Positions 1,155-50,180 of a stretch of DNA of 64,000 nucleotides are shown piece by piece. The position numbers and the translations under genes were made by a program. Origin of the DNA: Psilocybe cubensis (taxonomy: Eukaryota); the NCBI GenBank assembly GCA_017499595.2, contig CM039007.1, forward strand, positions 1,240,001 to 1,304,000, written 5' to 3'. Every line of letters starts with the position of its first letter. Positions within the stretch are counted from its first letter, which is position 1. A model generated the notes under the pieces. The model had not been told where the DNA came from and searched no databases. It saw only the letters and a program-made list of their open reading frames with translations.

Positions 1155-3520
1155 CTACAGCAAAGTCGAGCCGTTAGGGTCAACCACCTGAGATACTTTC
1201 GAAGTGGAAGCTTCAGCATGGTATTGATCCATAGCAGCTCCATTTGCATCAGGTTTATCATCAACTTTAGCACGATGTTGAGGGGTAACCGTTGAATTGA
1301 GGTAAGGCAGAGCTTCAAATTTTGGTTCTTGACCTCCAACAGAAACGCCGAGTCTCGCTAACCCGCCTCGCAAACGCTTGGTCTCATGGGCCTCCTTTTT
1401 TTCCTCCTTCTTTTCCTTCTCCTCGGCTTCTCTTTTTAAACGCTCCAACTTGTCCTTTTTCTCTCGTTCCACCCATGCACCGACTTCATCTGCTGCACGA
1501 AGGGGATCATTTTTGCAGGACAGAAGAAAACCCTGCAACTCGGCTGTGGAAAATTCATGCTGGGGAACAAAAGATGCAAAACGTTCTGCAAGTGCAGGTA
1601 TGTCCAATGGCTTCGCAAAGTCAGGAAGAGATTTCTTTTCGATATCTAATCCTGCATCCACGGTAAGCTCGTCATCTGGGTAGAAGCGTACAAACAATGC
1701 AGCAGCTTGTTCCTGTGTTGCAAGCTGATATGGAATTTTCACGTCGATTCGTCCAGGACGTAAAAGAGCTTGATCCAGTCGTTCAACGTAGTTTGTCTAT
1801 AAGCCGACAATTAGCATGGGATTTCTGTCAGACTTAGTGTGCATAACATACCGTTGCAAAAAATAGTTTCCCTTCCTCACTTCCAACACCATCGAGAACG
1901 TTAAGGAGCCCCGAGAGAGTCACGGCGGATCCGGGTCTTGCCATGTTCATAGCGCGTCTATTCATCCCCATCATGTTCATTCCCATCATCATACCACGCA
2001 TCGACGATTCCTCATTCTCCTGATCTTCGCGAGAAGGAAATGCGCAATCGATATCTTCAATAAGGATTATGGCTTGTTTTGGTATTGATGATACCAATCG
2101 TGCCAGCATTGCATCATCAAGCCTATCCACATCGATGAGGACAAGATAGGAGATAATGGAGAAAAAAGTCGAAGAAACTTACATGTTTGACGAAAGCGCA
2201 AGAGAATATATCTCGAGACCCAATTCTCCAGCCTGTAAAACTATTGTTAGACACTCACAAAACGCATCAACGACATTCCTACTGACGACCGCGTATATTG
2301 TTGATGCTAGAGATAGATCGAGGCTCGAATCAATGAATCCTGACCATCAGCAATGGTGGAGAAACCTTACTTTTTCCTGTTCCTGGGGGACCATATAGAA
2401 GATATCCTCTTCGATGAGGAATACCTGCCTTTATGTACCAAGCCTCCGATTTGATAAATTCCCGAGCGTCCTTAACAAGGGAACTTATAACACCTTCCTG
2501 CAGGATGATTGAACTGAGTGGTCTACGGTTCTTGCGTTTCGCGTTGCGCCATGCGCCGCCTCGATGATTAGATAGCATTGCCTTCGCGTCAAAGCGTAAG
2601 TACAACGTTAATGACATGAAGTTTGGAGAAAGTTGACCCTACCTGGTCAGCGCTATGCACAATGACATGTGGTCTACTAGTGGCCATATATTTCTTTCGC
2701 GCATCATCGACCAATGCAGACAACGCGCTCATATCGCGAGTATATAGCCTAAAGTTGCATATGAAGCGATTTCGGTTGCAATGTTGGCAATAGAATACGT
2801 ACGTCAATGACAGCTTTCCCAAAGACCCACTTCCATCCATGATAAAAGCATTATAATTTGCTTGATTTTTTTGTGATCCACTCCTCCTGATTTCGGCCCA
2901 GTATCCCCTCCATCGAAACAGCTGTGGTTCGTCATATGTTGGGACGTACTCTGCGTGTTCATCGACGTGCCCACCCGGCTTGGGGTTAGACGCCAAGTTG
3001 ACCGTCCATTGTCGAAGAGAAGATGCGGCATTGACTTGAAACTGTCTCGAGCGTGTCCACACTTTTTCCTCAGTCTACATTGAAGAAGGATGAGAATACG
3101 CGACGATGTTCGAGACAAGTATGATGCAACGCACCAGAAACAATATGATCCAGTCGTAGGCAGGGTCACCTTCGGAAAAATGTGCGGTAATTGAGTATTC
3201 TGTACAGTATATGAGGTATCAGTGAAGGAGCTATGTCAATGACGACATATTTTGAGACGCCACTCACGGAACGGTTTGAATCTTTCCATTGCCCATGAGA
3301 AAAACCTCCGACCACTTTCAATGATGGTTCCCAATAAGAACAATTTCATACTATTTCCAAAATACGAGTTTGATCCTCCTGCAGCATTTCCGATCGATTC
3401 CAGCTTTGTGCCCATCCCTTGAAGGAGCGATGCTATGAATGAAAAGCCAAAAATGCGAGTTAAACCCTGACCAGGGCCAAACCATGACTGTCCAGAGGTG
3501 TCGGCAACGTCGAAGGACAT
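1155..3520 (-). CDS. BCS1: BCS1-like AAA ATPase (multi-exon)
   Basis: BCS1 N-domain (YSITAHFSEGDPAYDW, YVPTYDEPQLFRWRGYW), WYIKAGIPHRRGYLLYGPPGTGK Walker A, ILIEDIDC Walker B, VTLSGLLNVLDGVGSEEG, TNYVERLDQALLRPGRIDVK, FSTAELQGFLL. GT-AG introns join the ORF pieces in frame, including a 20-nt exon at 2287-2306. It may be a lineage-expanded paralogue rather than the complex III assembly orthologue. Confidence 0.92.
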
Positions 3521-6273
3521 GAGTAGACAGTATCTTTCAGAGAGGTAGGAGGGGGGCGTGAAGTTTTGGTTTCTTCTTCCTTAACAATTTTGAATTGTAA
3601 GGATGGGTAGAAGTCTCCTTGCAGAATCCAGTTTGATAAGAGCGCAGCAGTGGGAAAGCTGACGCATCCGATGATGACTCACTTCAACTATTTCTCATGA
3701 TAATCGATCAGGATCATGCGAAGTGAGATACATTGAAAATGAAGTAGTGCTTCAACACACCTATGGGCCGACAGTATCGAATCCAACCCCAACGAGTGTT
3801 ACACACGCTCCTGCTTGCCAGATTTGTTTTCCAGTCGATGTGAAATAGCAGACTACAAGGTTTGTGTTCCCGCAGATCAATTTTTGACTGCGTTGAAGAA
3901 TACAGAGTAAGGTGACGCAAAGTGGTGTACACAGCGTATATAGGGCGGCACATCGTCATTCATGTCTATATCTGGGTCAAAGCTGCGGGTATGAATCCAT
4001 GATGGCTTCCTTAGTTATCGGGATTCGGGGCATACAGAAGCGCGTAAATGGCCAATGGCGCATACAGAGGCCCACTGCGAAGTTGTATCCTTCCACGTAG
4101 CAAGCAAATAGTCGATGATGCTGCTGAGTCAAGCCGAGCTGTTGTCGGGATGACATATGACGTAAACACTGTTACGTAACCCAACCTAGTTGGCTCCTGA
4201 CGTAGAGAAAGGGGCCTGTACGCTGAGAAATTAGAAAGGTATGAGTTCTCGGACACACTGGCGAACTACATAGCCTGACGAACGATGTGTGTGCTTGGGG
4301 AGAAGTAGAAAAGGTAGATTCATGGAAATGTATGCAACTTTAAGTTTTATGTATTGAAAAATTAGCAAATAAACAACTTCGTGAGTTGGGAGTGAGCCAA
4401 GATAAACGCTAGCGTAGACATCACTGGAATACTTGTTGGATTTACTCCAGCTAACCACTCGTAGTCTCGCCACTCAGCGAAACCTTTATATACCGTCATG
4501 TCCCAGAATAGTTTAAGTTATTCACATTGACAGCAGGACTTTCCGGCGCAGTTCTCGAGAAATGGTCACCGAACAAGTTGGTAGGCGGAGTGTCTGTTTC
4601 CCTACAAATGTTCCGGTGTGTGGAATGCAATGAGGTATAAAGTTAGAAGTCAGAAACTGAGAGAACACATGAGAGTAGCGTTAATTTTAAAAGACTCTAC
4701 TAAAAGAAGAATCAGACATACTGTAATTATTCCATCTACGTCCATTTGTTCGCTCGACAAAAATAAACAATGTGAGAACCTGTGAAGATGCACCCTTTGA
4801 TAGGTGTCTTCCACCTCTATTTTTGAGATAGCCATCTATACATCCAGTTATATGTCATACCTGTCATTGCTGCTTCAACCCCTGACATCGATCATATGCG
4901 CAGCAAGGGGTAATTTTTTGCCCGGCGCTCATTGCAACAGCGACCAAGTGCTTTAACGCTCACCCAAGAGTAAGAGAGAAACTTAATCTGTGTGTGTGTT
5001 TGTTGTAATTCATTATGTATACGCGAGTCTTATGCATTTGTTCTGATTTACTCTGAGAGTCAAAATCTAGACTAGATCATTGAGTCATGATTTTACCCAA
5101 GGTAAAACGACATTTTTATACATAGCTCTCTAAAAATGCGAAGATGGGAAGATGTCGCATTATCGACACCAGTATGCTCGGCTGATTGATTGACGTCGTC
5201 AGAGTAGCAGCCTCGGCTGATGGTATGTTGTTTCTGTTGTTATATGTAGCTTTGAGAGAAGAGAAGGAGGTTGCTCAACTAGATAAAAGTTACTGATATT
5301 GTACATTCGTCATGTCAATGGAACATAACATAATTGCGTCGGCAATTTATTTGGCACTCATAATCACACATGCGGAATTTAAATGCAGTATAATACTGCT
5401 TTGAGAGAGCATTTCATCTTCGGTAGGTCAGTATCCTTGGTATGTATCTTGCTTGTGATATATTCGATCGGGTCGGAGCGAGTCCTCACTTTGAAGATTG
5501 AATAGTATCTGTGTCATCGACTGTTGATTTAGTAATCAAGTATATATATTTCGTAGCTTGCTCTAAGAGGATACAAAATATAGGAAGTAATGAAAGAATT
5601 GAAAAAGCAGCTGAGGCTATATAGCCAACTTTTCTCTCGACACTTTTTGGGTGCAGGATGGTGCAGCTTAGTGTAATGCCGGGAAACGTTAACCGGCATG
5701 TCTGCGCGTTGGCTTGGTAATTGGTATAGCCACTTTGCCGAGCCGGCAAGACACTCCGGTTATCCAAACACGGGTGCATTCCCCCCGCGATAGCGTGGTG
5801 GTGGTTATGACTGACGCCTCCGTTGAATCTTTTGTTCTTCGGTTGTTGTCGTCTCCCTCTTGTCCCTCGACCCCCCATTCCTCTAAGCTTGAAGTTCAGG
5901 AGCTACATTACCAATAGGCACCTACGAGGAGCTGGTGTCTGATTGTGGCGCTTGGAGCACGCTTTGGCCATACCTTATACGCGACAGCCTGTGGACTGCG
6001 GGTCAAGTGGAGTGTAATTCTGGTGGATTAAACGCTCAGGTATGATAAGAGCTTTCTCTCTACCCTTTCTATGTAATTTGATATTCAGACATCACCTACA
6101 ACTGTTTGTCGTCGTTTAAAAGCTGTTTTCTTGACCCTTGAGCCCATCCAACATCACACATCGTTCACTGCTTTCGATATCAAGATTGACCATCGCTAGA
6201 TCATCATCACTCTAAGCAAGCTTCGCTAACAACCTTACGCCGCCGACACGTCCACGTTCACGATCACGAATAC

Positions 6274-6373
6274 NNNNNNNNNNNNNNNNNNNNNNNNNNN
6301 NNNNNNNNNNNNNNNNNNNNNNNNNNNNNNNNNNNNNNNNNNNNNNNNNNNNNNNNNNNNNNNNNNNNNNNNN
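6274..6373. other. Assembly gap (100 N)
   Basis: Run of exactly 100 N, the usual placeholder for a gap of unknown size. Confidence 0.99.
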
Positions 6374-11285: not shown

Positions 11286-14200
11286 CTAAGCAGCTGTATC
11301 TCCAGCAGAAATACTATCAGAGGGTGGCGCTGCAAGGATTTTATCAGATTCATGACAGCACAAGGACTTGAAGGTTGCACATACCTGCTACATGTGGATC
11401 TTCTCTCCGTAGATCTATGTTACCAGTGTCGTTTATAACCAGTCGGACGTTACAGCTATGGCGAACAAAAGTCAGCCCTGATAAAATTTTTTAATACTGA
11501 AGGTCTGTACTTCTTTTTGATATTTCCTCGAATTTGGGATTCAGCTATTACCTGGATCGCACATGATTTTACTTCATTTGACACGGAACGTGCCCCGTAG
11601 TTCTCATCATAGCCTTGAGCTAGCTTAGCAATAACTGCAGTTATAAAAGATTACTGAAAAATGAGTTTTACTGACTGGCAAAAAATTGGTACCTTCAGGT
11701 GTCCACGAGAGACGGATACCATGGTGCTCGTGAGCACGTTTTTTCCATTTATCCAGTTCAACTCTCACTATCTTCCGAATCTAAAATCGATCGAAACAGT
11801 CAATACTCCCCAAAAAATGGTATTTTTGCTCAGCCGACTAACCTCGTTCTCTGTAAACGGAAGAAATACCACCATCTGGTTGATTCGACCAAGGAATTCA
11901 TCCCGCTTCAACGTCTTCTTGAGCACGGGGTACAGTGTTTTGTTGAAGTTGGCTATCCCATTGAGGTACTGTGTGTGCATGTCCACGGCCTCGGTGCGTT
12001 CAACCAGTTTGTGTAGACCAGGCGCGGCCTGGCGGATCTCTTCCGACCCTAGGTTAGACGTCATAATGAAGACAGCGTCAGGGCAGTGGATTGTACCATG
12101 CTGTACAAACACATGATAGATAGTATGTTAGCCATATGTGCATTAATACCTATAAGATCATGAAGCATACATACCTTTGGATCAGTAATTCGCGCGTCGT
12201 CGAAGAGCTGGAGGAACACGGTCAGCACGTCCGGATGAGCTTTCTCGATCTCATCAAAGAGGACGACGGCCCGGGGATTTTTTCTTAGCTGGTTTGTTAG
12301 GTTGCCTCCACCTTCGTAACCCTGTCATGCATTGGAATAGGGACATGAAATTAGCGTGGAAAACGAGGAGAAAAGGACTGAGAGACTGGAACGTACGACA
12401 TAGCCCTTGGGAGATCCTGTGAGTGACGCGGAATTTTATTTAATCAGAATTGGATCTGAGAGGGCATGGAACAAGGGAGGAGAGCTTACCTGTTAAGTTG
12501 GCCACTGTGTGGCTATGTTGGTACTCCGACATGTCAATGCGCACAAACGTTCCTGACTTCTCAATATCCCTAAGTGTGATCTTCCTCTCCTTCTTCCCCT
12601 CCTTCCCACCGTCTTTTGAAGCGTCTCTATTGTTGTTCCCATCTTCATCGCTATCATCACCACTCTCGGAATCATTATCCCTTGACGATCTACCATTAGC
12701 CTTATCCCTAACCGCTGTCTTCAATGCGTCGTTGTGCAGATATAGCGCAATGCGCTTTGCAATTTCCGTCTTGCCAATCCCTGAGCTCCCTAGAAACATC
12801 AGGACCAGCGGACGCTCGGGGTCGACCCACCCGTTCTCCCGCAATCGTAAGGCCGAAGCTATACTTCGGATGGGGCCCCGCTGTCCTACCACATTTGCAC
12901 CTATAGATCTCTCTATCTCGACTAGAGAGAGGGATGAAGCGGTTTTACAATTTATTAGTCCGTGATAGGCACATATATATGGAGAGTCAATCTGCTTACG
13001 ATGTCGCATGCGGTATTTGTCCTCCGCGATTTGCTTTCGCTTTTTTTCTTTCTCTGCCTTTGCTGGAAATAAGACGGGTTAATATTATGTGATAACCTCT
13101 GAATATGAGTATTGGAAACGCAAACATACCAGTCTTCTTCCGCTCAGCCTTGTTACAGCGTTTCTGAGCTTTGGAGGCACGCTCCGCGCGCTTCCTTGCC
13201 TTCTCATCTGACAGACCCTCCAAGTCCCGCTCTCTCTCATGTTGTAAATCATCCATAAGCTCTCCCATACACACCAAAGCCTCAAGCTGTTCGTCCAATT
13301 TTCTCTTTTCCTCTTTTTCTTTTGCCTCCTTTTCCTTTGCCTCCTCCGCCTTGCGCTGCTGCACCTTCTTGTCCCTTCTCTCCTTCTCCTCAGCACATAG
13401 CGCTCTAAACTCTTCCATGCGGACACTACCATGCACCTTCACGTATTCCTCGGGAAGCATGTTATTGTCGTCCTTTCTTTCCCAATCTCCGCCTGCCTGC
13501 AGGATCAGCTCAACAACGCTCATCTCGCCCACGAGACAAGCGAGGTGGAGAGGTTGGCTATCGTCATCGGAGTACGGATTGGCGGAGGTGATACTGTGTA
13601 GATCTATAGAGGCCGGTTTGAGGGACTTAATGATTGACGAGATTCGGCCGTATATGCCACGGCTCCTTGTAATGGCGAGACTCTTGTTTGAGTTGATAAT
13701 CCTGAAGAAGAGGGTTCGTATAGAACGAAGCGCCGGTGAGATGCGTCGGTGGAGGGGTTTTGAAAGGCAACTCACTCTTTACAGTATTCTAAATCGCGCT
13801 CGCAAATTGCCCTGCAGAGCGCTGCGCTATCTACATTTATCACGTATATTTGAGTCCTCGATCCAACTGAGAAAATCATGTCAAAATTGAGAAATCGTAC
13901 CTTTTCTCTCAAGCGAGCGGTATCGCATCCTCCACTGGACGGTCGCCTCATGGTATGCTCTTACTACCTCTATATCAACCCTGGCCAAATCAAAATACTC
14001 CCTCGGGAGTCTCTTTTTCTCGTCCTGCCAATCAAACCCCTTAGAAATATCCGTTGTCGACCCAATATACAGATCGAGCACCGCAGCGTCCCCGCGCATG
14101 CATGCAAAATGCAGCGCGCTCGCTCCGGCCGTGGACTCTGTACCGACAATCTTTGGGCATAATTCTTCTTTGCGGCACTGTATATCTGCGTCGGAGGACG

Positions 14201-14517
14201 AGGTGTTGAACGTTGATTGGTCTTTTACCGAGACGTCGAGCCCGGGGAGGGAGAGGATAAACGCGAGGAGCTCTGGGTCGCAGTTGAGCGTGGCAGTGTG
14301 GAGGGGTGCCCAGCCGAGTGGGTGGCGGGTGTTGATGAGGTCGGGTGATATCTCGAGCAATCTGTGTTAAATTATGTTGGATTTGATGTATGTGTGCACT
14401 TGGAAGATACACTTACTGACGAACACGTTCGTGTTCATTTTCTACGAGAAGTTTACAGAGACTGCGGCCTCCAGAGACTGCCAATTGGGCATCAGGTGGG
14501 GTGACTTTCGACTCCAT
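11286..14517 (-). CDS. CLPB: Ankyrin-repeat plus single Clp-type AAA+ protein, CLPB/Skd3 (ANKCLP)-like
   Basis: Ankyrin motifs ([36 protein letters not shown]) and a coiled coil. These are followed by [92 protein letters not shown] and [14 protein letters not shown] at 14517 lies downstream of TATAAAA and the stop is at 11286-11288. Introns join in frame. Confidence 0.9.
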
Positions 14518-17248
14518 GGGTGCCAGTAGGAAGATGGGCGTTTTCTAGCAGAATGTAGGCACTTTTATATTTTCCGCGGTGCCTTCCTTGATGCCATTGT
14601 TCACTCATTGTCTGCGACAAATGGTAGTGCACACAACAGCACGTGTAGGCCCTCAGAGTCATAAGAACCCACAAGTAATTGGTTCCGATGTTGATTTGTA
14701 GGCGTCGTCTTCTGTAGAGTTGTCGTTGTAGGTCTTTGAAAATGAAAAAAATTAACCTTGGATTAGGGTTTTTAGACGACTGAGTCAGTTTGTGTAGACG
14801 GAAATGTACGGTGGGAGTGTACTTGACGTTATGCATTAGTAGACGATCGATGCCTTGATGATAGATTGTTCAAATCAAGTTTAAATTAAGCCACACATTT
14901 TCCCAGGCTTACGGTACAGCCACTTCAACTTTTAGTAAAAATTTCAATCCTCGCTGCTGCCTCGCGGCTATGTTTGCACACTATCGCAGCCCATAGGAAC
15001 ATATCTTTCCCAACACGTTGTTCATCTTCAGGGAACGAGTCCGGCTTTACATCATTCGAGTGGATGCTTTTACGCTGGATGGCCCCTTAATCACACCTCG
15101 TGGCATATATCTAACTCGGGTTTGTATTATAGACTAGCTGTCTTCGATATAATTCTCGTAGTGTATTTTGATGTACGCGACCTACGGACATAAGAAGGGT
15201 GAGATCAGATGCTTTTCTTTAATTAGATAGGAAAATATATGATATTACGGTTGGCTAGATGGATGCGAAAAACATGTATTAAATAAGGTGAAGGGCCTAG
15301 ATATGAAGGGTCTCAGATTTGAGGCTTTCTCAATCGCAGAACTCAGGTTGAGGTTGTGTTTCAGAACCCTGCCTCTACCACATTCAGAAACATCTTTCAA
15401 ATTATTTACCATGCGCGTTCCAAAGCTCCCCTGGTGGATGGGAAGGTTAATCAAATCGCGTGAGTAGGGATGGAGTACATGAACGTACATGCGAACCGGG
15501 GCACTCGCACTCTCAAACCTCGAGGTTTGTAGGGCGGAGATACCGCGTTGACGGGTACCTACTCAGACGAAATCCATCGCGGATTTCCCAGGCTATGCCT
15601 AACACCTCGGTATGATGGTCCGTACTTAAATTATCGTGTGTAAATGTGATATGTGGCACGGAGAAGCCGTCGAAGAGCATTTCGGGAAAATAAGTAATTG
15701 GTGACGAGAACAGTACAAGAAAGTTCTGTTAGGCATGGCGCGATATAATTTCTCACTTCAAGGAATGCCACAAGCCGCATTACAACCTGTTCAGGGACGT
15801 ATATCAAAATGATTCTTTGCATGGTACTTCATTGATTTGATATTTCCTCTTCTCATATCGACAACTACAAAGCCTGAACCGAAAGTTACTACACTCTTGC
15901 TGATCCACAGAATGTCCGTATACGAAACCAATAACTTGTACATATGCGGGTTGACTCTGAAGATTCAGAGTTGTGTCAATGGGCAGCCCAAGCTGACTGG
16001 ACGGCAGCTAAACAGCAAGACGCTTGATTAGGAAGTTCAGATGTTGAGAGTAAGTATGCGTCGACTTACGAGCCGTATCCGTCCGTGGTAAATGGCCCGC
16101 AGCAGACATACGACACGGGGCCTAAAGAAAAGGGTGATTTAGTGTCAGAAATACTCTGGTATTCATGATAGAAAATAGACTTACATCTAATGCTCTATAT
16201 GAATGGTTGAAGTTCCGGAATGGTGCGGATTGTCAGCATCAGGGTAGTAGTACAAGTCAGAGAGAAGATATTCAGAAATGGATGCATACATTTGGACCTC
16301 CGCCTGAAACATGTAAATGCACCATGGTAGGCATTAAGCGGCATAATTAAAATACAAATACATAAATGGACATACACAGGATAAGCGCACTATCAGCGCT
16401 TGGAAGTGCCACCACTTGCGATATGGATGTAAGGACGCCGGCAACGAGAAAGAGTACAGTCTTCATGCTAAGTCTACAGATGGGGGACATCAAGACGTGT
16501 AGTAAAGGATTATATACGGTTTTCTGATGTCAGGGCAATGCGTTCCTTGGTTTACAGAGTGACACGGCAGTCATGGACGACTCGGCTAAGTGACTGAAGT
16601 TTAACAAACAAAATGAATTCGTGCCTTGATATTGAGCATGATAAAAATAGTCCAATACAAGCGCTGGTTGGGGTATTACATTAAGTTTTGAAAAAGAACC
16701 CAGGCTGTTCACATGTGCAAACCACACGACTTGACCCACGCCTGAACATAACGTACGAAGCATTCAGACTAACTTATATCTATTATCAGTGAACCGTCTG
16801 CACGCCAGCCCCTATCTCAAGTACGTGTTCCTGAATAATCGACATCACATGAGGATGCGCCAAGCGTAACGCGCCCACCCGTCGCGCTCAGTTGGCGCCG
16901 CTGACGCGGAGTTGTGTTATCAGACTTCGGTGAAAATACACATGGGACCGCTGGGACTGCGATTGGAGTCTGGATATGTCTACCTCCATTTGCGGTTTAG
17001 TTGTCTGGGGAAAGGACTCGGATGAGGGATGAGGGAATTATCCTTTTTCAATCAACTGTGTAGTACTACGTCAACTTCAAGGCGGTGCAGCACACAGTTT
17101 ATAGGTAGGCGTGTACGTACATACCCGGGTCAACGTTACGTTCTTAATACACCCAATAAAAGAAGAAAAGAAGAACACAGGAAACAGCCTGATTGTACTT
17201 TTTCACTTTTTCCACATACAGTTAGAAGCGCTTGATGACTCGCTCGTC

Positions 17249-17477
17249 CCAATGATTCGCGAGAAACACACGGGTTTGGAATAGCGACGGAGGCACTCTG
17301 TTCGCGCTCGGGCGTACAGAGTGCTCGAAAATACAAATTAGATATTATAGTGATTAAGTACACGTGGGGGAGCAGCATCGCGCATAGGCGGGGCTGCTCG
17401 TGAGCAAGGAAATGAGAAAACGCTACATATGGGGTGACATTGCACGAATGCGTGGCCACTTTGTCGAGGTCAAGGCT
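17249..17477 (-). repeat. Split direct repeat B2 (229 bp), 3' terminus of the element
   Basis: Matches 18595-18823 (CCAATGATTCGCGAG...GTCAAGGCT). Confidence 0.95.
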
Positions 17478-17503
17478 CTACATATCAGTCAAGGCTGTAC
17501 ATA

Positions 17504-18415
17504 TCAGTCACGGTTGCGCAAAATAGCATGCGCTAAGAAGAAAAGGCGTTGCAAATCGCGTTGTTCAGCGCTACTGCGTGCGCATTTAAGCAACCACTGC
17601 AGTTGCGCAATCAAGCCCATCACGAGTTCAAACGGCAAGGTGGCGAAGTGAACAGAATCGTCGATGAGCCGATGGCAAACTTCGATCTGGAAGTCTTGTA
17701 AAACGGGTGACGATTCCATGTTTGGGAACGGAGTTTGGGCTTGCAATTCTGCAGTAGGTTGGATGGGTGGATACAAGTCGGACGGCCAATTGATGGGAGG
17801 CAACACGCGTGGGATCAGAGTAGAACGGGGACGGAAATCGTTCGGTTGAGATTGTTGGTTATTGTAAGATGAGTAGTCGTCGTATTGTGTATAATCAGAG
17901 TAGTTGTTGTCATTGTGGGCAAGTGAGAGGGTGTTGCTGAGGGGAGGAGGTGATGCGGGTTGTGAAACAGCGGGTGAAATGACAGTGAGGGGAGGAGGTG
18001 ATGCGGGTTGTGAAACAGCGGGTGAAACGACAGTGGAGGACTCGCTGGGTTGGGGTGAAAAAGCATTGGAGGTTGCGTACATCCGTCGCAGTAGGACGGG
18101 GGTAGCAGGACGGGAGTGTGTAATGTTGTGTAAAGCAGCGACAGCATTATTCCAAGCAAGGTCGTCAGTGGAAGAGTTGAAAGTTTCTGTGGACGAGTGT
18201 TGGTGTAAAATGGCATTGATGGCTGCGGCATTGTTGGTGAAAAATTCCATTAAAGTTGCATCAGAATTTTCGTGGTTGGACGTGGTAGAAGGGGTGTTAT
18301 AAGAACGTGCCATGGGAGGAGAAGGGTGGGTTTTGAAAACAATGTTTTGGTGATTCGCTCGGAATGTGATAGAGCGGTTGGAAGAGCAATGTTTTTGCCC
18401 CCACCGTTTAGACAT
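17504..18415 (-). CDS. Ngaro accessory ORF4 of unknown function (303 aa; alternative start MARSYN at 18313)
   Basis: Intronless ORF filling the A2-B2 spacer. It has an in-frame 48-bp duplication, a disordered middle and a helical-looking C-terminus (LQDFQIEVCHRLIDDS...LAHAILRNRD). Confidence 0.65.
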   Translation of the reverse strand: MSKRWGQKHCSSNRSITFRANHQNIVFKTHPSPPMARSYNTPSTTSNHENSDATLMEFFTNNAAAINAILHQHSSTETFNSSTDDLAWNNAVAALHNITHSRPATPVLLRRMYATSNAFSPQPSESSTVVSPAVSQPASPPPLTVISPAVSQPASPPPLSNTLSLAHNDNNYSDYTQYDDYSSYNNQQSQPNDFRPRSTLIPRVLPPINWPSDLYPPIQPTAELQAQTPFPNMESSPVLQDFQIEVCHRLIDDSVHFATLPFELVMGLIAQLQWLLKCARSSAEQRDLQRLFFLAHAILRNRD

Positions 18416-18595
18416 TTACTGGAATGTGAAACCTCATGTGTGAGCTCATGCCGCTTGGGGCCGAGCAGAGGTTTGATCAACACCGTTTGTGCTCTCAGGC
18501 TGACGGTGGCAATGTATAAGGCGCTATTCACATTTCCTCGCGGTTTTCTCCAGAGCTTCTCATTGGATTTTTGTAATCTTCCTATTAAACTCAAC
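18331..18595 (-). repeat. Split direct repeat A2 (265 bp)
   Basis: Matches 23414-23678 and abuts B1, sharing one base at 18595. Confidence 0.95.
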
Positions 18596-18823
18596 CAATG
18601 ATTCGCGAGAAACACACGGGTTTGGAATAGCGACGGAGGCACTCTGTTCGCGCTCGGGCGTACAGAGTGCTCGAAAATACAAATTAGATATTATAGTGAT
18701 TAAGTACACGTGGGGGAGCAGCATCGCGCATAGGCGGGGCTGCTCGTGAGCAAGGAAATGAGAAAACGCTACATATGGGGTGACATTGCACGAATGCGTG
18801 GCCACTTTGTCGAGGTCAAGGCT
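18595..18823 (-). repeat. Split direct repeat B1 (229 bp)
   Basis: Matches 17249-17477. Confidence 0.95.
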
Positions 18824-18918
18824 AACCATTGAATTTTTTTTTTTTTTTTTTTATGATTTTGGATTAGAATGATGCGAAGTTTCAAAAAAGAAACTTCAAT
18901 AGAGGAGCGGGAAAGTGG

Positions 18919-19950
18919 TTAAGTATGAGTAGTAACATTTGGTGCGCGGGATTTGGCGTAGAGCAAACCCTGTATGATTGCGGGATGTCTTCGAATATAG
19001 ATTAGAAACGCCTGGGAAGACCATCGGCCCATCTGTTGTATGATTGTTGGAGGCACACCGTGTTCTGCTAGGGATGTGGCACCTCCTGCTCGCATACTTT
19101 GGCCAGCGATGGAGTTGGAAAAGAAACGTCGAAGCCTAGTCATAAAGAAATGCCGTGTGGGAATGGCACCTGTCGACGTGAGCCATAAAGGGCCGCTGGA
19201 GTTACCGAAAAGTTGATCTCGCGAACGTAAGTAGTTGGTGAAGTGCGACACAGGGTTATGTTGGAATTGAGTAGCTTTGACAATGACGTGGTTTCCTTGA
19301 AAAAACCGATCGGCCTTGTGGTATGGCAACCAAAATTCAAACTGGGAAGTGGATAAGCGTACGGAGCTGCGCATGGTGATTTTGCGCCAGTCACGAAGAC
19401 GTTTTTCGTCGGGTAGAGTCATCTCGCCAAGACGTAATAGGGCGAAAAAACCCGTCATGACCATAGAAAGAAAAAGTGAGTCGTCGTGGTCATTGGAGGT
19501 CGTGTAATGTTGCTTCAGTAATTGCAGATCGTCGAGAGTTAATGCTTCTTTGCGAGTTTGAGGGGTACCATGCCGTTTTTTGCAGCCAACCAAAGTTCGT
19601 TTTAACAACGGAGAGGTACGGGCCTGTCGGACATTGGGGAAATGAGGTTCTAGTTGGTGTACAATGCCAGACAAATAAGTTTCGACGGTGTGTATTTTGT
19701 TAAATGATGATTGGTAAGTCACGTATAACGAAAGGGTGTCGGGTGTTGGCTCTACGGGAATGTTGTGGTTATGAACAAAAGCCAGGTAGGAGTTAAGGGC
19801 GGAACCGTAGGCGTTTTCAGTGGAGATGTCAATGGCTTCCCCCAGAGCCAAAGCACGTTCGTGCTGTAATTTTTCGGCGGACCACACAGGGCGATGTGGC
19901 TGACGAGGGGGACGAACACGGGTGATTACAGTGTTCTTTCCAACGACCAT
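18919..19950 (-). CDS. Tyrosine recombinase (Ngaro ORF3)
   Basis: N-terminal core-binding region (YGSALNSYLAF). Catalytic motifs FALLRLGE (R), YHKADR (K), GQSMRAGGAT (HxxR position, with Q for H), MGRWSS and FLIYIR (Y). Confidence 0.95.
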   Translation of the reverse strand: MVVGKNTVITRVRPPRQPHRPVWSAEKLQHERALALGEAIDISTENAYGSALNSYLAFVHNHNIPVEPTPDTLSLYVTYQSSFNKIHTVETYLSGIVHQLEPHFPNVRQARTSPLLKRTLVGCKKRHGTPQTRKEALTLDDLQLLKQHYTTSNDHDDSLFLSMVMTGFFALLRLGEMTLPDEKRLRDWRKITMRSSVRLSTSQFEFWLPYHKADRFFQGNHVIVKATQFQHNPVSHFTNYLRSRDQLFGNSSGPLWLTSTGAIPTRHFFMTRLRRFFSNSIAGQSMRAGGATSLAEHGVPPTIIQQMGRWSSQAFLIYIRRHPAIIQGLLYAKSRAPNVTTHT

Positions 19951-22900
19951 GGAGGAGGTTGGAAAGGTGAAATTTCAAGTCTCGGTTCGATCGTCAGTGC
20001 AGTCGAGAACTGGGAGCGTGACAGAGCGTCTGCCACAGTATTTTCGTCACCTGGCACGTGTAAGATTCGTAGTTTAAGGTTCTTGTCAAGAACAAGGTCA
20101 ACGGAGGCTTTTAAAAGCTCGTTGAATTGAGGTGTACACGCCAGAGATGAAAATATTGCCACCGTATTCAAATTGTCGGTGAATATGGTAACTTTGTTTC
20201 CGTAACCAGCAATCTTGGCAACGTTTGCCAAGGCACAGTAAACACATAACGCTTCATAATAAAAGATAATGGATGTATTGCTTTGAAGAGGAGTTGAAGA
20301 ATAAAAGGCTTGAGCGGATGATGGGAACCAAAATCCCATTCCGTCAGGGCAAGCATCGCAATAGATCACAAAGTCGGATTGAGATACATCCCATTCCCGA
20401 GATTGCAGCAAGTGTACCCCGTCCGAATTGTCTAAATGTTTGATAGCCCATAGAAAATCATTGCGAATTTGGTCATTGACGCGAATATTGCGAAAAGGGT
20501 TGTATAAGCCAGCTGTCTTTGGGTAGAAATTATTCAGACAGGGACGCAAGAGGGGATAGACGTTCAGTGCCCAGTTTATCCACCCGGCCATTTGTTGCCA
20601 ATATTTAAGTTTGAAGTTGGTTGCTTTGCGACTAGGAGGCTTAATTGCCCACGTTTTCATTGCTTCTATTAATGCTTCTTTGGAATGAGAAGGCATAGCG
20701 AAAGTCATATGATTAGGATCAACTTCGACACCTATGACGGGCAGAATGTTTGCAGAAAGTTGTTTTTTCTCTTTGTGGGGGATGCCTAGTTCGTCCCAGA
20801 GACGGAGTAAAATCGCTTGATGATAAGGAAGATGTTTTTGGTAAGGTTCGTAATAAGATGTGTTGCCTTCGAGATCAAAACCCGAAGAGTCATCAACATA
20901 ATTGGCGAGGTAGTCGATACCGCGTTTGCGTGTTGCTATCCAGGCAACAAGTGCATTAAAAGCAATAAAAATAGACCCAGAAGCCGAATTTCCAAAGGCG
21001 TTGCATCTGTCAATGTAACGCAGGCCGTCAACAGTGTTAACTTGCTTTAATTGCCACAGCGGATGCATAGGTAGAAGACGATATGCTTCAGCAATATCAG
21101 ATTTCCACATTACGAGCTTATCGTCACCGTGTAAGGCACGAAAATGTAATAACATTTCGCCCAAATGACTCATATTATCAAGAGGATACCCCGTCACCTT
21201 ATCGTGATCAATCATAGAGTTGAGTGAGAATTTTCCAGCACTATGATCAGTCACAAGGCGCAAATCTACGCCGTTGGGTTTAGGAACCGCGTGCGCAGGC
21301 ATAGAATACATGCCGTCAAGTAGATCGGGACCAAAAGAGGTTGAGAACCGGTCCTTTAGTTGTTCTTCGTTAAGCTGAGATCGAAGAAATTCAGCTTTAC
21401 CATGATCACTTGGTGTAGGACGAGACTCGTCATGAGTTAACGGGAATGAAGAAGTATCAGCCCATGGCCAAAAACCATAGCGAAAACCATCGCAAACCGA
21501 TTTGACAAACGGTTGGTTTGGATGATCAACTAATAGGCTTTCAAAGACATCGACATTAATGGGAGTAATGATCTTGAACAAATCGGGATTTTTACTAATA
21601 GTTTGCATAGCGGGAACATTCTGATATTCTAGATTAGAGGGGCGAGATAGAGGCATAGCAGTTTCAGTCCAATCGGCGGCGGTTGGGGATAAATTAGGAT
21701 AAGCGGGCCATAGGTTATGCCTCAAGTAAGATGGCCGTGACCCTAAAGCAGCGGAAAATGGATTACTTGCAGCTTTCGACAGAGTGGCCGGATTTTCGGC
21801 AACGTTTGCACACATGTCGATATCGGCACTCGTTTTGTGGAAGGGGACATCCGCGTTCAGAGTTGAACCTGTTGCAGACATCGGGACGGCGTCCGTTGCG
21901 ATTGTTGTTGCCTGAACGTCGTGAGTTATGTTCGGAGTACTCGCGTCCGCCTGGGAGCAATATGGATGAGTAGAGTCGGAGGAATCTTCCATGGTCTGTA
22001 AGCGAGTAGTGTTGTCCACCAGCAACCTGGTTCCGAACGGCGATGTCGTAGAGTATGACTCGAGGGTGTTCAGACGGGGCACGCTCAAGGAATTCATCCT
22101 CGATTGATTCTCCGTATTCTCTGAGTTCCGCAGCTCGGTGAGGGAATGCGAACGCGGTGGCCTGAGATGCAATGCGCCATGCCGCCGACCAATCTGGTGC
22201 TGAGTGAACCTTTCGCTTCGGTTCAACGACTCCTGTGCGGATTTCGGCATTACCGACGCGAGTTGTTGCCTCTGTGTCAATTGACACGCGACATCGTGAT
22301 GACAAGCAGTGGTCGAGGCTGAGACTTTGGCCTCTGAAGACTTTTTCCCACTCAGACATCGGGAAATTCGCGGGCGCTTTAGGGGAGAGTGCAATGAAGC
22401 GTTTGGCGGCTGCAATGTCTGTAGAGTAGAGTCGAAGGAGTTGCAGGTTTTTGGTGATGTGAGGGTCGTCTTTAGTGGTGCATTCAAGGTTGCTTTCGAA
22501 CCACGGCATGTCGTGTTCGTAGAGTTTCGTTCGTTTAATTGAACTGGAGTGTGAATCTGGGGATTCTGAACGCGAATGTTTGTTTGACGATTGAAGGCTT
22601 TCGAGAATCGTGTCCAAGTCTTGTTCTTGTACAACGGAATGTTCAGGGTACGGTGGTAAATAAGGTGAGCGTGTGTGTCGGGAGTTGTGTGTTTGAATGG
22701 AGGGAGAGTGTGATTCCTGTCGGACATGCGAAATATGTTGCGAGTTGAGCCTCGAGGCGAAAGAAGGTTGTGGGGAAAGTTGGAAGAGTGATGTATTGGT
22801 TTCGACGGCTTTTCCTTTACCGTTGTATTCAACTGTTTGTAAGAAGGTGGACACGATACTGTCTTTGAGACTGTTGTCGACTGAGGAGTTGGATTCCAAT

Positions 22901-23348
22901 AGTTGGAGTCCTTGGGATAGTGCTTTGGTCTTTGACAAGTGTCGCGATTGGAATTGATGGACGATTCGACTGAGTTTTTGCTCAAGATGTTGTACTTCGG
23001 GTCGGTTTGATTCTCTGTCATGAAAGACGTCTCGCGCTCCAATTCGGCAGTCGCTTTCCTCTTCTCTCCTCTGACTTTGCGATTGAGTGAATTGTGCGGG
23101 GCGAAATCGCCCCTGACGTTGCGCAAATTCAAATTGGGTGACGTATTCAGGTTGATTGACACAACGTGACGGTCCGCCGAGCTGACACTCGTTGGATTGG
23201 GATGGTTCGTAGTTTTCTCTATGTCGATAGGAATGGCGGTCTGGAGATAAAGTGTTGGAGGACCCTTCGTTTCGTGGGAATTGGGACACGTCAAACGGTT
23301 CCTGATCGCCATTCGAGTTAAGAGTGGGTGAATGTTGAAGTTGGACAT
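19926..23348 (-). CDS. Reverse transcriptase / RNase H (Ngaro ORF2)
   Basis: AVPKPNGVDLRLVTDHS, WKSDIAEAYR, AFGNSASG, ANYVDD; RNase H motifs YCDAC, YEAL, FTDN, HVPGDENTVADALSR. Uninterrupted 1140-codon ORF. Confidence 0.95.
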   Translation of the reverse strand: MSNFNIHPLLTRMAIRNRLTCPNSHETKGPPTLYLQTAIPIDIEKTTNHPNPTSVSSADRHVVSINLNTSPNLNLRNVRGDFAPHNSLNRKVRGEKRKATAELERETSFMTENQTDPKYNILSKNSVESSINSNRDTCQRPKHYPKDSNYWNPTPQSTTVSKTVSCPPSYKQLNTTVKEKPSKPIHHSSNFPHNLLSPRGSTRNIFRMSDRNHTLPPFKHTTPDTHAHLIYHRTLNIPLYKNKTWTRFSKAFNRQTNIRVQNPQIHTPVQLNERNSTNTTCRGSKATLNAPLKTTLTSPKTCNSFDSTLQTLQPPNASLHSPLKRPRISRCLSGKKSSEAKVSASTTACHHDVACQLTQRQQLASVMPKSAQESLNRSERFTQHQIGRRHGALHLRPPRSHSLTELRNSENTENQSRMNSLSVPRLNTLESYSTTSPFGTRLLVDNTTRLQTMEDSSDSTHPYCSQADASTPNITHDVQATTIATDAVPMSATGSTLNADVPFHKTSADIDMCANVAENPATLSKAASNPFSAALGSRPSYLRHNLWPAYPNLSPTAADWTETAMPLSRPSNLEYQNVPAMQTISKNPDLFKIITPINVDVFESLLVDHPNQPFVKSVCDGFRYGFWPWADTSSFPLTHDESRPTPSDHGKAEFLRSQLNEEQLKDRFSTSFGPDLLDGMYSMPAHAVPKPNGVDLRLVTDHSAGKFSLNSMIDHDKVTGYPLDNMSHLGEMLLHFRALHGDDKLVMWKSDIAEAYRLLPMHPLWQLKQVNTVDGLRYIDRCNAFGNSASGSIFIAFNALVAWIATRKRGIDYLANYVDDSSGFDLEGNTSYYEPYQKHLPYHQAILLRLWDELGIPHKEKKQLSANILPVIGVEVDPNHMTFAMPSHSKEALIEAMKTWAIKPPSRKATNFKLKYWQQMAGWINWALNVYPLLRPCLNNFYPKTAGLYNPFRNIRVNDQIRNDFLWAIKHLDNSDGVHLLQSREWDVSQSDFVIYCDACPDGMGFWFPSSAQAFYSSTPLQSNTSIIFYYEALCVYCALANVAKIAGYGNKVTIFTDNLNTVAIFSSLACTPQFNELLKASVDLVLDKNLKLRILHVPGDENTVADALSRSQFSTALTIEPRLEISPFQPPPWSLERTL

Positions 23349-23355
23349 TATGCAT
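21763..23355 (-). CDS. Gag-like protein (Ngaro ORF1)
   Basis: First ATG at 23355 (MHNVQ). Core FPMSEWEKVF..WSAAW..FAFPHRAAELREY..VILYDIAVR. C-terminal CNRFN..C..C.YRH.C..C...H...C zinc fingers are typical of DIRS/Ngaro gag. Confidence 0.9.
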   Translation of the reverse strand: MHNVQLQHSPTLNSNGDQEPFDVSQFPRNEGSSNTLSPDRHSYRHRENYEPSQSNECQLGGPSRCVNQPEYVTQFEFAQRQGRFRPAQFTQSQSQRREEESDCRIGARDVFHDRESNRPEVQHLEQKLSRIVHQFQSRHLSKTKALSQGLQLLESNSSVDNSLKDSIVSTFLQTVEYNGKGKAVETNTSLFQLSPQPSFASRLNSQHISHVRQESHSPSIQTHNSRHTRSPYLPPYPEHSVVQEQDLDTILESLQSSNKHSRSESPDSHSSSIKRTKLYEHDMPWFESNLECTTKDDPHITKNLQLLRLYSTDIAAAKRFIALSPKAPANFPMSEWEKVFRGQSLSLDHCLSSRCRVSIDTEATTRVGNAEIRTGVVEPKRKVHSAPDWSAAWRIASQATAFAFPHRAAELREYGESIEDEFLERAPSEHPRVILYDIAVRNQVAGGQHYSLTDHGRFLRLYSSILLPGGREYSEHNSRRSGNNNRNGRRPDVCNRFNSERGCPLPQNECRYRHVCKRCRKSGHSVESCK

Positions 23356-23413
23356 AATACAGTGAAGATGAGATAGCTGTAAGTTATCGATGAAAAGCAA
23401 GGCTTTTAAATCC

Positions 23414-48000: not shown

Positions 48001-50180
48001 GCGGTTGTGGTGGCGGTTGTGAATGTGAATGATGTGGTAGTGGTGGTCTCTCCCTATCTCTCTCCCTTTCCCGCTCCTGATTTCGCTCCTTCTCCCGATC
48101 TCGCTCCCGATCACGATCCACACGCGCATCACCCAGCGCCGACCACGAAGGCTGCAGCGCGCGCTCCCGCTCCCTCTCCCTCTCATGCTCCCTCTCACGA
48201 TCGCGTCCTGGCCCTGACCCCGCCCCCGCCCCTGACCCCGGCCCTGGACCAGAACCCGGCAAAGGCGGAGGCGGTGTAGGCGGGTACGGTTCATGCGGCT
48301 GTAGCTGGCGCGTCGGCATCGTCGTCGCTGGTCCCGCGTGCCCATGCCCATGTGGAGGCGGAGGTACATGTGCATGAGAAGGAGGCGGAGCCGCGCGGTA
48401 GTGCTGCGCCGGCAAAAGTGGATGATGATGAGGATGATGAGGCGGCGGGGGAGGGGGAGGGGAGTGCAGGGCGTGTGGAGGTGGTGGGGGGCGTGGGTGG
48501 TATATAGGCGGTTGTGTTAGTGTAGGCGGGGTGTAATGCGAATGCGAATGCGAATGCGAATGTGATTGTGATTGTGAGTGTGAATGCGATTGAGATTGCG
48601 ATTGTGAATGAGGGCGTTTGGAATGCGCAGCTGGAGGAGGAGGAGGTGGTGGTGGTGGCGAGCCAGAGCGCGAGTGCGGGCGCGGGTGCGAATGCGAGTA
48701 CCGTCCCGGATGCGGATAAGCCGCATGCAGAGGGGGCGCAGGTGGTGGATACGGCGAAGCCGACGCGGAAGGCGGAAGAGGCGGGGGCGCACCGCGCGAT
48801 GTAGCATGTGGAGGTGGATAGCTCGAGGCATACTCTCTACTGCTGCGATACCGCTGCGAGTGCGAGTGCGGGTGCGGGTGAGGGTGAGGGGCGCGGTACC
48901 GCGGATCCCTCGCAGGGTCGCTGTCGTAGCCGTATCCATACCCATACTCGCGCTCGCGCTCGTAGTCAGGCGACGGCGCGCGGTGTCTACTCCCGCTCGG
49001 TCGTCTCTGCAGCGCATGCGCATGTGCATGTGGGTGCGGCTGGGGAAGGGGATGAGGCGGCGGAGAGGGCGAGTGGTACACTCTCATCGGCGACGGCGGC
49101 GAGTGCGTATATGCGAGGTTATCAGGCGAGTGCGATGGGGGAGGGATAAACGGTGGGCGCGATGAGTGCACGTACGATGATGGGTTCCATGTTCGCGGGG
49201 TGTACCCTGCCGTGCGTGCCCCATTACCACCACCATCACCAGCGGCGGCGGCGGAGGAGGACGCTGGCTCGCGATCGCGCGGGTGCGAGGGAGAGTGCAC
49301 AGGCTCGAGCTGGGTGTCTAGTGGCTTGTCATCATCATCGTCGTCGTCGGCTGCGCTGCGCATGATAGTATCACCATCGTCCGCGGGGTCACCGTCTGAT
49401 CCGGTATACAGAGCCGGTTTGGGTGGTTTCGACGGGGGCTTGGGTTTGTGTGCGGGCTTGGGTATGGGCGTCGGCTTGGGTATGGACGTCGGCGTGGATG
49501 TCGATGCGGAGGTGGATGGGACGGGTGCCGGCGGTGGTGCAGGTGCGGGTGCGGGTGCGGGCTTTTGTAAGAGCCATGGAGGGTCTGGGATGGGTTTGAG
49601 CGTGGAGGTGTCTTTGGCGCGGGGTGGCACTGGAAGGCTATCCCTGATCACTCGAAATTCGGGCGTCGCCTTGTCTTTCTCTTTCTCCTTCTCCTTCTCT
49701 TTTTCCTTGGACCCCTTCCTCGTACTCTTTTCCTTCTCCTTCGCCTTTTCTTTCCCCTTCGCGTTCGTCTTTTCCTTTTCCTTTGCTTTTTCCTTCTCCT
49801 TCGCCTTTGCTTTTTCCCTCGCATACAACCGCGTCCTTAGATACACACCCTCCTCCTCCTCCCCATCATCCATAAGCTCATCCTTCTCCTCCTCCTCCTC
49901 CTCTTCTTCTTCTTCTTCCTCTTCCTCAACACTCTCCGCCTTCCTCGGCCTCTTCACCCTCCGTCTAGCATGACTATCCAAAACACCTGCAAGTAAAACC
50001 AATTATCACCATTGAGAACGGAGCGAGGAGAACGGAGGAAAACGTACTTCTAGTTTTACCCGACCTAGTCCTTCTTCGCGTGCTCGTGCTATCCTCGTCA
50101 TCGTTGTCGTCTATACTGGGAGAGTTGCTGGCGTCGGGCTCGAGCTCTATGGGTCGCGGACGCTTGTTAGCGGAGGGCAT
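39064..50180 (-). CDS. Giant (~3,628 aa) low-complexity protein with two tandem zinc fingers, probable transcription factor
   Basis: Exons 50180-50048, 49986-40863 and 40693-39064 join in frame. Fingers: YPCDVCGQIFTRSGDVRRHKESRH and CRFCGRVLTR|QDALQRHWDKYC, the second completed only across the intron. Confidence 0.85.

Follow-up and report, generated by a model that had tools for sequence, protein, structure and literature searches.

A derived ankyrin-Clp ATPase of the CLPB/Skd3 family in Psilocybe cubensis, probably acting outside mitochondria

Introduction

The AAA+ protein Skd3, or CLPB, dissolves protein aggregates without the help of Hsp70, and its mutations cause disease in humans. Here, we describe a gene of this family in the mushroom Psilocybe cubensis, encoded on the minus strand at positions 11286-14517 of a 64,000-nucleotide stretch of contig CM039007.1 (assembly GCA_017499595.2, positions 1,240,001 to 1,304,000), which we refer to as the window and to which all coordinates below belong. 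The gene is functional, transcribed and spliced, and it is under purifying selection among strains. Judged by its sequence, its product belongs, in derived form, to the CLPB/Skd3 (ankyrin-Clp) family of AAA+ proteins. As a whole, the evidence is best explained, with a probability that we put at roughly 0.6, by a functional member of this family that has been remodelled and would work as an unfoldase or disaggregase outside mitochondria.

Published accounts associate this architecture with animals and their unicellular relatives. The origin of the ankyrin-Clp fusion has been placed in the stem-holozoan lineage (Erives & Fassler 2015), and Skd3 has been stated to appear first in choanoflagellates (Cupo & Shorter 2020), the latter text containing neither the word 'fungi' nor 'fungal'. 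The initial annotation of the window, made from the sequence alone, had taken the same view, with which both papers agree. Public annotation already gives fungal members the label 'caseinolytic peptidase B', and a search of the open-access and bioRxiv literature returned no paper describing fungal ankyrin-Clp proteins.

Membership of the CLPB/Skd3 family

The closest database entry to the product of the window gene (811 amino acids) is P0001, a UniRef 'Uncharacterized protein' of 823 amino acids from P. cubensis. In Pfam, P0001 matches ankyrin families at residues 25-298, AAA_2 at residues 470-704 (4.3e-40) and ClpB_D2-small (PF10431) at residues 712-790 (1.4e-12) and nothing else, with neither a Clp_N domain nor a second ATPase domain being found; an exon-by-exon scan of the window gene gives the same families. 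The fusion of ankyrin repeats to a single Clp-type second nucleotide-binding domain (NBD2), which had been read by eye from the translation, is therefore borne out, and the signatures noted at that time (the N-terminus, RHPLGW, LRENGW, Walker A, the sensor 1 stretch DAVFIMTSN and sensor 2) are all present in the translation.

The AAA+ domain, of the NBD2 type and recognised by Pfam AAA_2, is encoded at 11876..13000. It carries the Walker A motif GSSGIGKT (12790-12767), the pore loop KGYVGY (12408-12316, split by intron 7), the Walker B motif VVLFDEIE (12267-12244), the sensor 1 motif IMTSN (12067-12053) and the Arg-finger region RDEFLGRIN (11905-11879), and is followed by the ClpB D2-small domain found by Pfam (residues 700-778; 11443..11854) with the sensor 2 motif YGARS at 11599-11585. 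In an alignment of 32 sequences, and in P0001 numbering, the invariant positions include G474, S476, G477, G479, K480 and T481 of Walker A, Y579 and G581 of the pore loop, D603 and E604 of Walker B, T643, S644 and N645 of sensor 1, the arginines R695 and R701 of RDEFLGRI, and G758 and R760 of sensor 2. The motifs of the catalytic motor are thus all intact.

Both sequence and fold comparisons place the protein next to animal CLPB/Skd3 (PDB 7tts, 7xbk, 7us2, 8zr0), its best match in both respects. In a search of PDB sequences, the five distinct Skd3/CLPB entries lead with 293-322 bits, followed, outside the family, by the NBD2 of Thermus thermophilus ClpB (176 bits), ClpC (167 bits) and yeast Hsp104 (165 bits). 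An AlphaFold2 model made with the 32-sequence alignment has a mean predicted local distance difference test (pLDDT) of 83.9, and a Foldseek search with this model returns Skd3 chains first (7tts, E 1.8e-30), the first ClpB NBD2 standing at rank 32 with 1.3e-22. The two proteins have in common the order of an ankyrin domain, a single NBD2-type AAA+ domain and D2-small, the RENGW, Walker A and B, GYVG pore loop, sensor 1, sensor 2 and Arg-finger motifs, and an insertion between the ankyrin repeats. The ankyrin similarity is extended: residues 26-140 align to residues 12-131 of Skd3 8zr0 (independent E-value, i-E, 3.3e-05) through the RH-LGW repeat, the non-repeat insertion and the ALH[FY]A repeat, and residues 43-133 align to residues 202-298 of gecko CLPB (E 3e-06). 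In the ESM Atlas, animal CLPB clusters are likewise at the top; ankyrin-less AAA_2 clusters of Ascomycota and Basidiomycota are also returned there and are leads only.

Disaggregases of the Hsp104, Hsp78 and bacterial ClpB type combine an N-domain with a pair of ATPase domains and a coiled-coil middle domain, and depend on Hsp70. The window ATPase belongs to the same HCLR group and resembles the second NBD and D2-small of these proteins. The window protein, in contrast, has a single AAA_2 and no Clp_N by Pfam, its long helices precede the ATPase domain instead of lying inside one, and the PDB scores of Hsp104 and ClpB are about half those of Skd3.

The ATPase and D2-small part was cut with phmmer from 59 and then from 67 proteins for phylogenetic analysis, leaving out of the second set Rickenella_3 (partial), Seison (a very long branch), and Oscarella_2 and Phellopilus_2 (near-duplicates). 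In the careful tree of 67 rows and 313 columns, whose bootstrap stopped short of full convergence, 55 ankyrin-Clp rows are split at 100/100 from 12 bacterial and plastid ClpB/ClpC rows. The protein of Gymnochlora, the sole eukaryotic two-domain protein among the matches listed, groups with ClpC. The grouping with bacterial ClpB that an AAA+ tree might have revealed is therefore not what is found, the tree being one that was built without fungal Hsp104 or Hsp78. This last circumstance is what speaks for an independent fusion of ankyrin repeats to the NBD2 of Hsp78, Hsp104 or ClpB, convergent with CLPB. Such an origin is nonetheless close to refuted, since the score of the ATPase against Skd3 is roughly double that against ClpB or Hsp104 structures of any kind, the ankyrin domain itself, inter-repeat insertion included, matches that of Skd3, and the split from bacterial and plastid Clp proteins has 100/100 support. 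Of the initial proposal of a mushroom homologue of CLPB/Skd3, the family thus stands, on PDB scores, ankyrin alignment, fold and tree; a plain CLPB orthologue, however, is not what was found, as the protein belongs to a strongly derived Agaricomycete subfamily and its ATPase is only about 36% identical to that of animal CLPB.

Gene structure, transcription and variation among strains

The limits first given for the gene coincide exactly with the start codon (14517-14515, ATG) and the stop codon (11288-11286, TAG) of our model. The gene spans 3232 nt and its coding sequence of 2436 nt, translated into 811 amino acids, is divided into 13 exons: 14517-14417, 14361-13901, 13830-13776, 13701-13130 and 13062-13000 (exons 1-5), 12921-12490, 12416-12397, 12321-12175, 12100-11843 and 11780-11693 (exons 6-10), and 11634-11511, 11455-11385 and 11329-11286 (exons 11-13). 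All 12 introns are of the GT..AG type and measure 55-78 nt. Of 904 candidates in a protein search with exon 6, 88 reached E <= 1e-5; P0001 came first, with 100% identity over this exon. Along its whole length P0001 equals the model except for 12 residues added at the exon 2/3 junction (window 13831-13900). Because the acceptor implied by these residues leaves an intron of 34 nt, the homologues all lack them and their pLDDT is below 50 (residues 191-198), a 70-nt intron 2 with the exon starting at 13830 is preferred, a choice that relies on the homologues and the structural model, with the RNA contigs covering other parts of the gene.

The coding region 11286..14517 is supported by the model, by its identity to P0001 and by spliced RNA contigs at three introns. 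Contigs of run X1 skip 14362-14416, 12101-12174 and 11456-11510 with CT..AC ends, corresponding to introns 1, 8 and 11, and those of runs X2 and X3 are continuous across the same introns; X1 therefore contains RNA from this gene after splicing, and the contigs of X2 and X3 come from the DNA of other strains under the same label. A further run, X5, gave no contig on this stretch. X1 covers three of the 12 introns, the other nine and the region upstream of 14549 being uncovered and giving evidence neither way. Between these runs and the window there are 27 single-letter differences, distributed over exons (13), introns (6), the downstream side (1) and the upstream side (7). Ten of the 13 exon differences are synonymous and three non-synonymous (pN/pS of about 0.09), and the five indels all lie at 14745-15176, within 680 nt upstream of the ATG, with none in the gene.

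Read-through of intron 12 (11330-11384), whose tail would faintly resemble the RGC[RH][YF] tail of the subfamily described below, was considered and is disfavoured, as the match of an RNA contig ends exactly at the donor at 11385 with seven letters remaining, which favours splicing.

P. cubensis has a second copy, P0002, of 795 amino acids and 51% identity, annotated as 'Caseinolytic peptidase B protein-like protein'. A tblastn search of the window with P0002 finds one locus only, the ankyrin-Clp gene itself, and no paralogue in the window, so that P0002 must lie elsewhere in the genome. A separate observation concerns record 2 of X1, an RNA contig of 1016 nt and higher depth (13.6), of which only 33 bases match the window, with three mismatches, at the segment coding for YGARS (11586-11618); this contig may have been transcribed from a paralogue, for instance P0002.

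A restructured subfamily in Agaricales and Hymenochaetales

The relatives closest to the window protein come from Agaricales (Cyclocybe, Agrocybe, Flammula, Phlegmacium and P0002) and Hymenochaetales (Rickenella, Schizopora, Phellopilus, Coniferiporia and Sanghuangporus), with 49-63% identity over the ATPase. Together they form a fast-evolving and restructured subfamily, confined among the matches listed to these two orders, whose members have in common a duplicated ankyrin module, a charged linker and an insert in the NBD.

The duplication was found with an ankyrin profile of 196 positions, built from members outside the Agaricomycetes, whose ankyrin domain is single; this profile matches all 21 Agaricales and Hymenochaetales rows twice (two Sanghuangporus rows aside) and a control row once. 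Both matches are often near the full profile, and in Hymenochaetales the second spans almost all of it, which indicates that the entire Skd3-type ankyrin module was duplicated in tandem. In the window protein, module A (residues 17-140; 14043..14469) is matched at 66.5 bits over profile positions 47-175 and is the counterpart of the entire ankyrin domain of Skd3, with its cap helix, RHPLGW repeat, non-repeat insertion and further repeat. Module B (residues 189-301; 13416..13828) gives the second match, at 17.2 bits (i-E 3.9e-06), and is a degenerate copy in which the last repeat alone is recognisable (residues 255-295), more decayed than in the Hymenochaetales relatives.

The modules are followed by a charged helical linker (residues 302-417; 13001..13415), recognised by its composition and by AlphaFold2, of 116 amino acids with 53% E, K or R and one KKRK motif, which the structural model shows as a pair of long helices (P0001 residues 310-377 and 384-437). 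After the Walker A helix there is an acidic low-complexity insert of 63 amino acids (residues 481-543; 12545..12733), seen as a gap against Skd3 and gecko CLPB; its pLDDT falls below 50 at P0001 residues 512-537, where it would be disordered, and it is shorter in the other Agaricomycete copies. Animal CLPB has neither the linker nor the insert, and the second, degenerate ankyrin module is a further difference of the fungal protein.

Hymenochaetales show apparent local arrays of these genes. Five proteins of Schizopora paradoxa (P0015, P0016, P0092, P0096 and P0098) each have a longest contig of 69,646 bases, and adjacent locus tags are found in Coniferiporia (M0805_007534 and M0805_007535; P0094 and P0095) and in Sanghuangporus (ACEPAH_3278 and ACEPAH_3279; P0196 and P0198).

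This degree of restructuring could also mean a new job. General disaggregation would then have been given up, the same motor, which threads polypeptides at the expense of ATP, now serving in a dedicated remodeller or in a factor of stress or defence. A very long stem branch, the duplicated ankyrin module and the new 116-residue linker, the paralogue clusters in Schizopora, Coniferiporia and Sanghuangporus, and the faster divergence of the ankyrin part between the two Psilocybe copies (37% identity, against 43-55% for the ATPase) would all fit such a change. However, every motor motif is invariant, the window copy is under strong purifying selection, and no sequence feature indicates a particular client, so that we hold this possibility to be a plausible but rather doubtful one.

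Distribution and evolutionary history

In a second protein search, 7995 of the 8000 scored candidates reached E <= 1e-10, and the best 120 were examined. The first 21 are seven Agaricales proteins (five species), 13 Hymenochaetales proteins (four species) and an unnamed one, and further down stand animals, Monosiga, Rozella, two Gonapodya, Hyaloraphidium, Phycomyces, Choanephora, Spinellus, Diplonema and several EukProt transcripts. Most of the fungal proteins have longest source contigs of 27 kb to 9.5 Mb. Among 1.84 billion representatives, 3148 proteins reached E <= 1e-30, of which the best 150 were listed; the 20 named ones add two species of Sanghuangporus, Dimargaris, Ichthyophonus, Rhodelphis, a stick insect and a gecko. 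Near the bottom of these 150 (E of about 1e-47 to 1e-46, 173-178 bits), the named rows are bacterial Clp/ClpC types and the Gymnochlora protein. Within Dikarya, the named matches listed belong to Agaricales (five species) and Hymenochaetales (six species) only; no protein of Ascomycota or of other Basidiomycota orders is among the best 120 or the named rows of the best 150, more distant copies possibly ranking lower. The fungal lineage that the initial annotation had supposed is thus represented, among the matches listed, in Agaricales, Hymenochaetales and early-diverging fungi.

The family extends to Rozella, chytrids, Mucorales, Dimargaris, Diplonema and Rhodelphis, and these early-diverging fungal and protist copies contradict the statements of a stem-holozoan or choanoflagellate origin. 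Those of the early-diverging fungi (Rozella, Gonapodya, Hyaloraphidium, Phycomyces, Choanephora, Spinellus and Dimargaris), some of which are named 'caseinolytic peptidase B', are of animal-like size (most 539-646 amino acids), with a single ankyrin module and short branches, unlike the Agaricomycete copies on their long stem. In another Dikarya lineage, the Sordariales orthogroup OG0007227 is described with ankyrin repeats N-terminal to an AAA domain, together with UBA_4, Clr5 and ClpB_D2-small (PMC12258605). By this description, the order of ankyrin, AAA and ClpB_D2-small is that of the window protein, from which the orthogroup differs by the additional UBA_4 and Clr5 domains.

In the careful 67-row tree, the 21 Agaricales and Hymenochaetales rows are without exception united in a single clade (100/99), in which the window protein and P0002 are paired (99/86) inside a clade of Agaricales (100/100). 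Its stem measures 0.75 changes per column, and 1.27 in the first quick tree. The eight rows of early-diverging fungi make up another clade (99/97) inside the ankyrin-Clp group. Agaricales are nested beside Rickenella at 99-100 in both the quick and the careful 67-row trees and enter a three-way split in a careful tree of 29 rows, on which an approximately unbiased (AU) test does not reject the monophyly of Hymenochaetales (p 0.51); a transfer from Hymenochaetales to Agaricales is left open.

A horizontal transfer into Agaricomycetes, from a protist, an early-diverging fungus or an animal, would account for the restriction of the named Dikarya matches to the two orders and for the separation of their clade from the early-diverging fungi in the 67-row tree. 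Yet the AU test on the 29-row tree leaves the monophyly of all fungal rows unrejected (p 0.33, log-likelihood difference 3.75). In the same tree, a 99/97 branch that joins Ichthyophonus with two animals leaves the fungal clade outside, and neither here nor in the 67-row tree does the Agaricomycete clade fall within Metazoa. The gene has 12 short introns of the fungal type, and the long stem makes any placement unreliable. We consider a transfer quite unlikely. Vertical descent with remodelling is what we favour: the gene would most likely descend from an ancestral mitochondrial ankyrin-Clp gene that is still kept in early-diverging fungi and that most Dikarya seem to have lost, the copies of Agaricales and Hymenochaetales having been remodelled along their long stem.

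N-terminus and probable location

At its N-terminus, CLPB has a mitochondrial targeting sequence and then a hydrophobic stretch, which in humans is cleaved off by PARL. The window protein has neither. Its first ankyrin motif is at residue 46, its residue 43 corresponding to residue 202 of gecko CLPB; the net charge over residues 1-25 is +1, with two acidic residues, and its maximal hydropathy over 19 residues is 0.46. These are crude measures of charge and Kyte-Doolittle hydropathy. By the same measures, the first ankyrin motif lies at residues 38-48 and the maximal 19-residue hydropathy is below 1 in all seven Agaricales proteins. The absence of a presequence noted at first in the window protein therefore extends to the other six Agaricales proteins, as does that of a hydrophobic stretch. 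Four of the seven share the start M-[AQ]-[AT]-P-W at a homologous position. The animal proteins differ: 14 of 17 have a net charge of +3 to +7 with zero or one acidic residue in the first 25, and most have a hydrophobic stretch before the first ankyrin motif. Similarly basic, presequence-like N-termini are present in four of seven early-diverging fungal rows. Hymenochaetales proteins have about 100-140 extra N-terminal residues, which are not basic and contain a membrane-like stretch (hydropathy of 1.47-2.63 in 12 of 13).

The initial annotation had named an upstream exon supplying a presequence as what would overturn its proposal. The 5' flank from an in-frame TAG (14547-14545) to the ATG occupies 14518..14547, placing the stop 30 nt upstream, and its sole AG is inside that stop codon. 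The single upstream open reading frame (ORF) able to splice in frame to this AG lies at 14836-14668, with an ATG at 14836, and its product is basic. Its possible donors, GTTCTT and GTGCAC, are unlike all 12 donors of the gene and would give introns of 124 or 88 nt, and both other strains have a 1-nt deletion at 14745 that shifts its frame. The X1 RNA contig is unbroken over 14417-14514. An upstream coding exon is thus unlikely: the upstream stop, the weak donors, the frameshift in other strains and the shared start speak against it, whereas the RNA contig, ending at 14514, does not define the 5' end of the transcript.

The protein might still be a disaggregase of the mitochondrial intermembrane space, imported by means of an unannotated 5' exon or of an internal, non-classical signal. 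In its favour are the presequence-like N-termini of most relatives (the 14 of 17 animal and four of seven early-diverging fungal rows given above), the N-terminal hydrophobic segment that Hymenochaetales relatives retain, the basic upstream ORF with the AG at 14546-14545 as a possible acceptor, and an RNA contig that does not go past 14514. Against it, the seven independently annotated Agaricales proteins all begin at the same place, four with M-x-x-P-W, the donors and intron lengths required (124 or 88 nt, compared with 55-78 nt) do not fit the gene, and the upstream ORF is broken in both other strains. We therefore regard a mitochondrial location as unlikely, and the features of the N-terminus suggest that the protein probably acts outside mitochondria, in the cytosol or the nucleus.

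Genomic surroundings

From 14518 to about 17200 there is no long ORF. Beyond lies a retroelement (about 17200-23405, minus strand), whose ORFs were judged by eye from their translations: one of 351 codons resembling a tyrosine recombinase (18919-19974) and one of 1159 codons resembling a reverse transcriptase (19926-23405). On the other side, a multi-exon gene on the minus strand at 1155-3580 encodes a BCS1-like mitochondrial AAA ATPase (AAA_lid_BCS1, 2.8e-18, with the Walker A motif GPPGTGKS in a neighbouring exon). Nothing suggests a functional link of the retroelement or the BCS1-like gene to the ankyrin-Clp gene. An assembly gap of 100 N is located at 6274-6373.

Two other features stand out in the window by their composition. 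An uninterrupted ORF of 3047 codons (40859-50002, minus strand) occupies a GC-rich block (0.59-0.63, against 0.44-0.48 around it), which is out of keeping with the many short introns of other genes in this genome; its product is of low complexity, rich in P, G, A, R, S, E and H, ends in a C2H2 zinc-finger-like segment and has no Pfam match. A second block of raised GC (0.52-0.58) holds an ORF on the plus strand (27976-29070) with an OTU-like cysteine protease domain (4.2e-10).

Proposed mechanism and significance

By analogy with Skd3 and the HCLR clade, the protein would form a ring and pull polypeptides through its central pore by means of the conserved GYVG tyrosine and at the expense of ATP. 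From this ring-shaped, ATP-driven threading it would follow that it may act as an unfoldase or disaggregase without the need of Hsp70. The ankyrin modules may participate in substrate binding or in assembly, and the cytosol or the nucleus would be the site of action that the N-terminus points to.

Several points weigh against the reading of a remodelled, extra-mitochondrial disaggregase. On so long a stem, the careful tree gives no more than 91/66 support for the Agaricomycete clade as the sister group of the remaining members, and this placement is the pattern that would be expected of long-branch attraction to the outgroup. The distribution of the gene is patchy, which leaves some room for the transfer into Agaricomycetes weighed above, and the exclusion of Hsp104 and Hsp78 comes from PDB scores and from bacterial and plastid outgroups in a tree lacking their fungal representatives. 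Both Psilocybe copies lack the RGC[RH][YF] C-terminal tail conserved in most of the clade, with carriers such as P0006, P0009, P0011, P0012 and P0017, and the long stem together with the paralogue arrays of Hymenochaetales may mean that the activity has changed. As for location, the reading 'not mitochondrial' is drawn from the absence of a signal, intermembrane-space proteins being able to enter by internal or cysteine-based signals as well; the RNA contig ends at 14514 with the 5' end of the transcript undefined, and the AG of the upstream stop (14546-14545) could serve as the splice acceptor of an upstream exon.

A more far-reaching version of our reading, which we offer tentatively and at less than even odds, is that Agaricales and Hymenochaetales rebuilt the ancestral mitochondrial disaggregase as a new machine with a doubled ankyrin module and a charged spacer, which in Agaricales lost its import signal and would be a stand-alone, Hsp70-independent disaggregase of the cytosol or nucleus, presumably working beside Hsp104, and that the ankyrin-Clp fusion is far older than stem-holozoan. 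If this is true, the fusion would far predate the origin given for it in the literature.

The gain is moderate, as the family was known, its fungal members are labelled in databases and the location is a predicted one. Even so, the family is older and wider than stated, with members in several fungal phyla and in protists, and one mushroom lineage rebuilt Skd3 into a new form that is most likely extra-mitochondrial. A cytosolic form occurring in nature, its substrate-binding module doubled, would help to compare the ways in which the motor is controlled by the ankyrin domain and by N-terminal processing. One may also ask why a fungus that has the usual Hsp104 should retain a further disaggregase.

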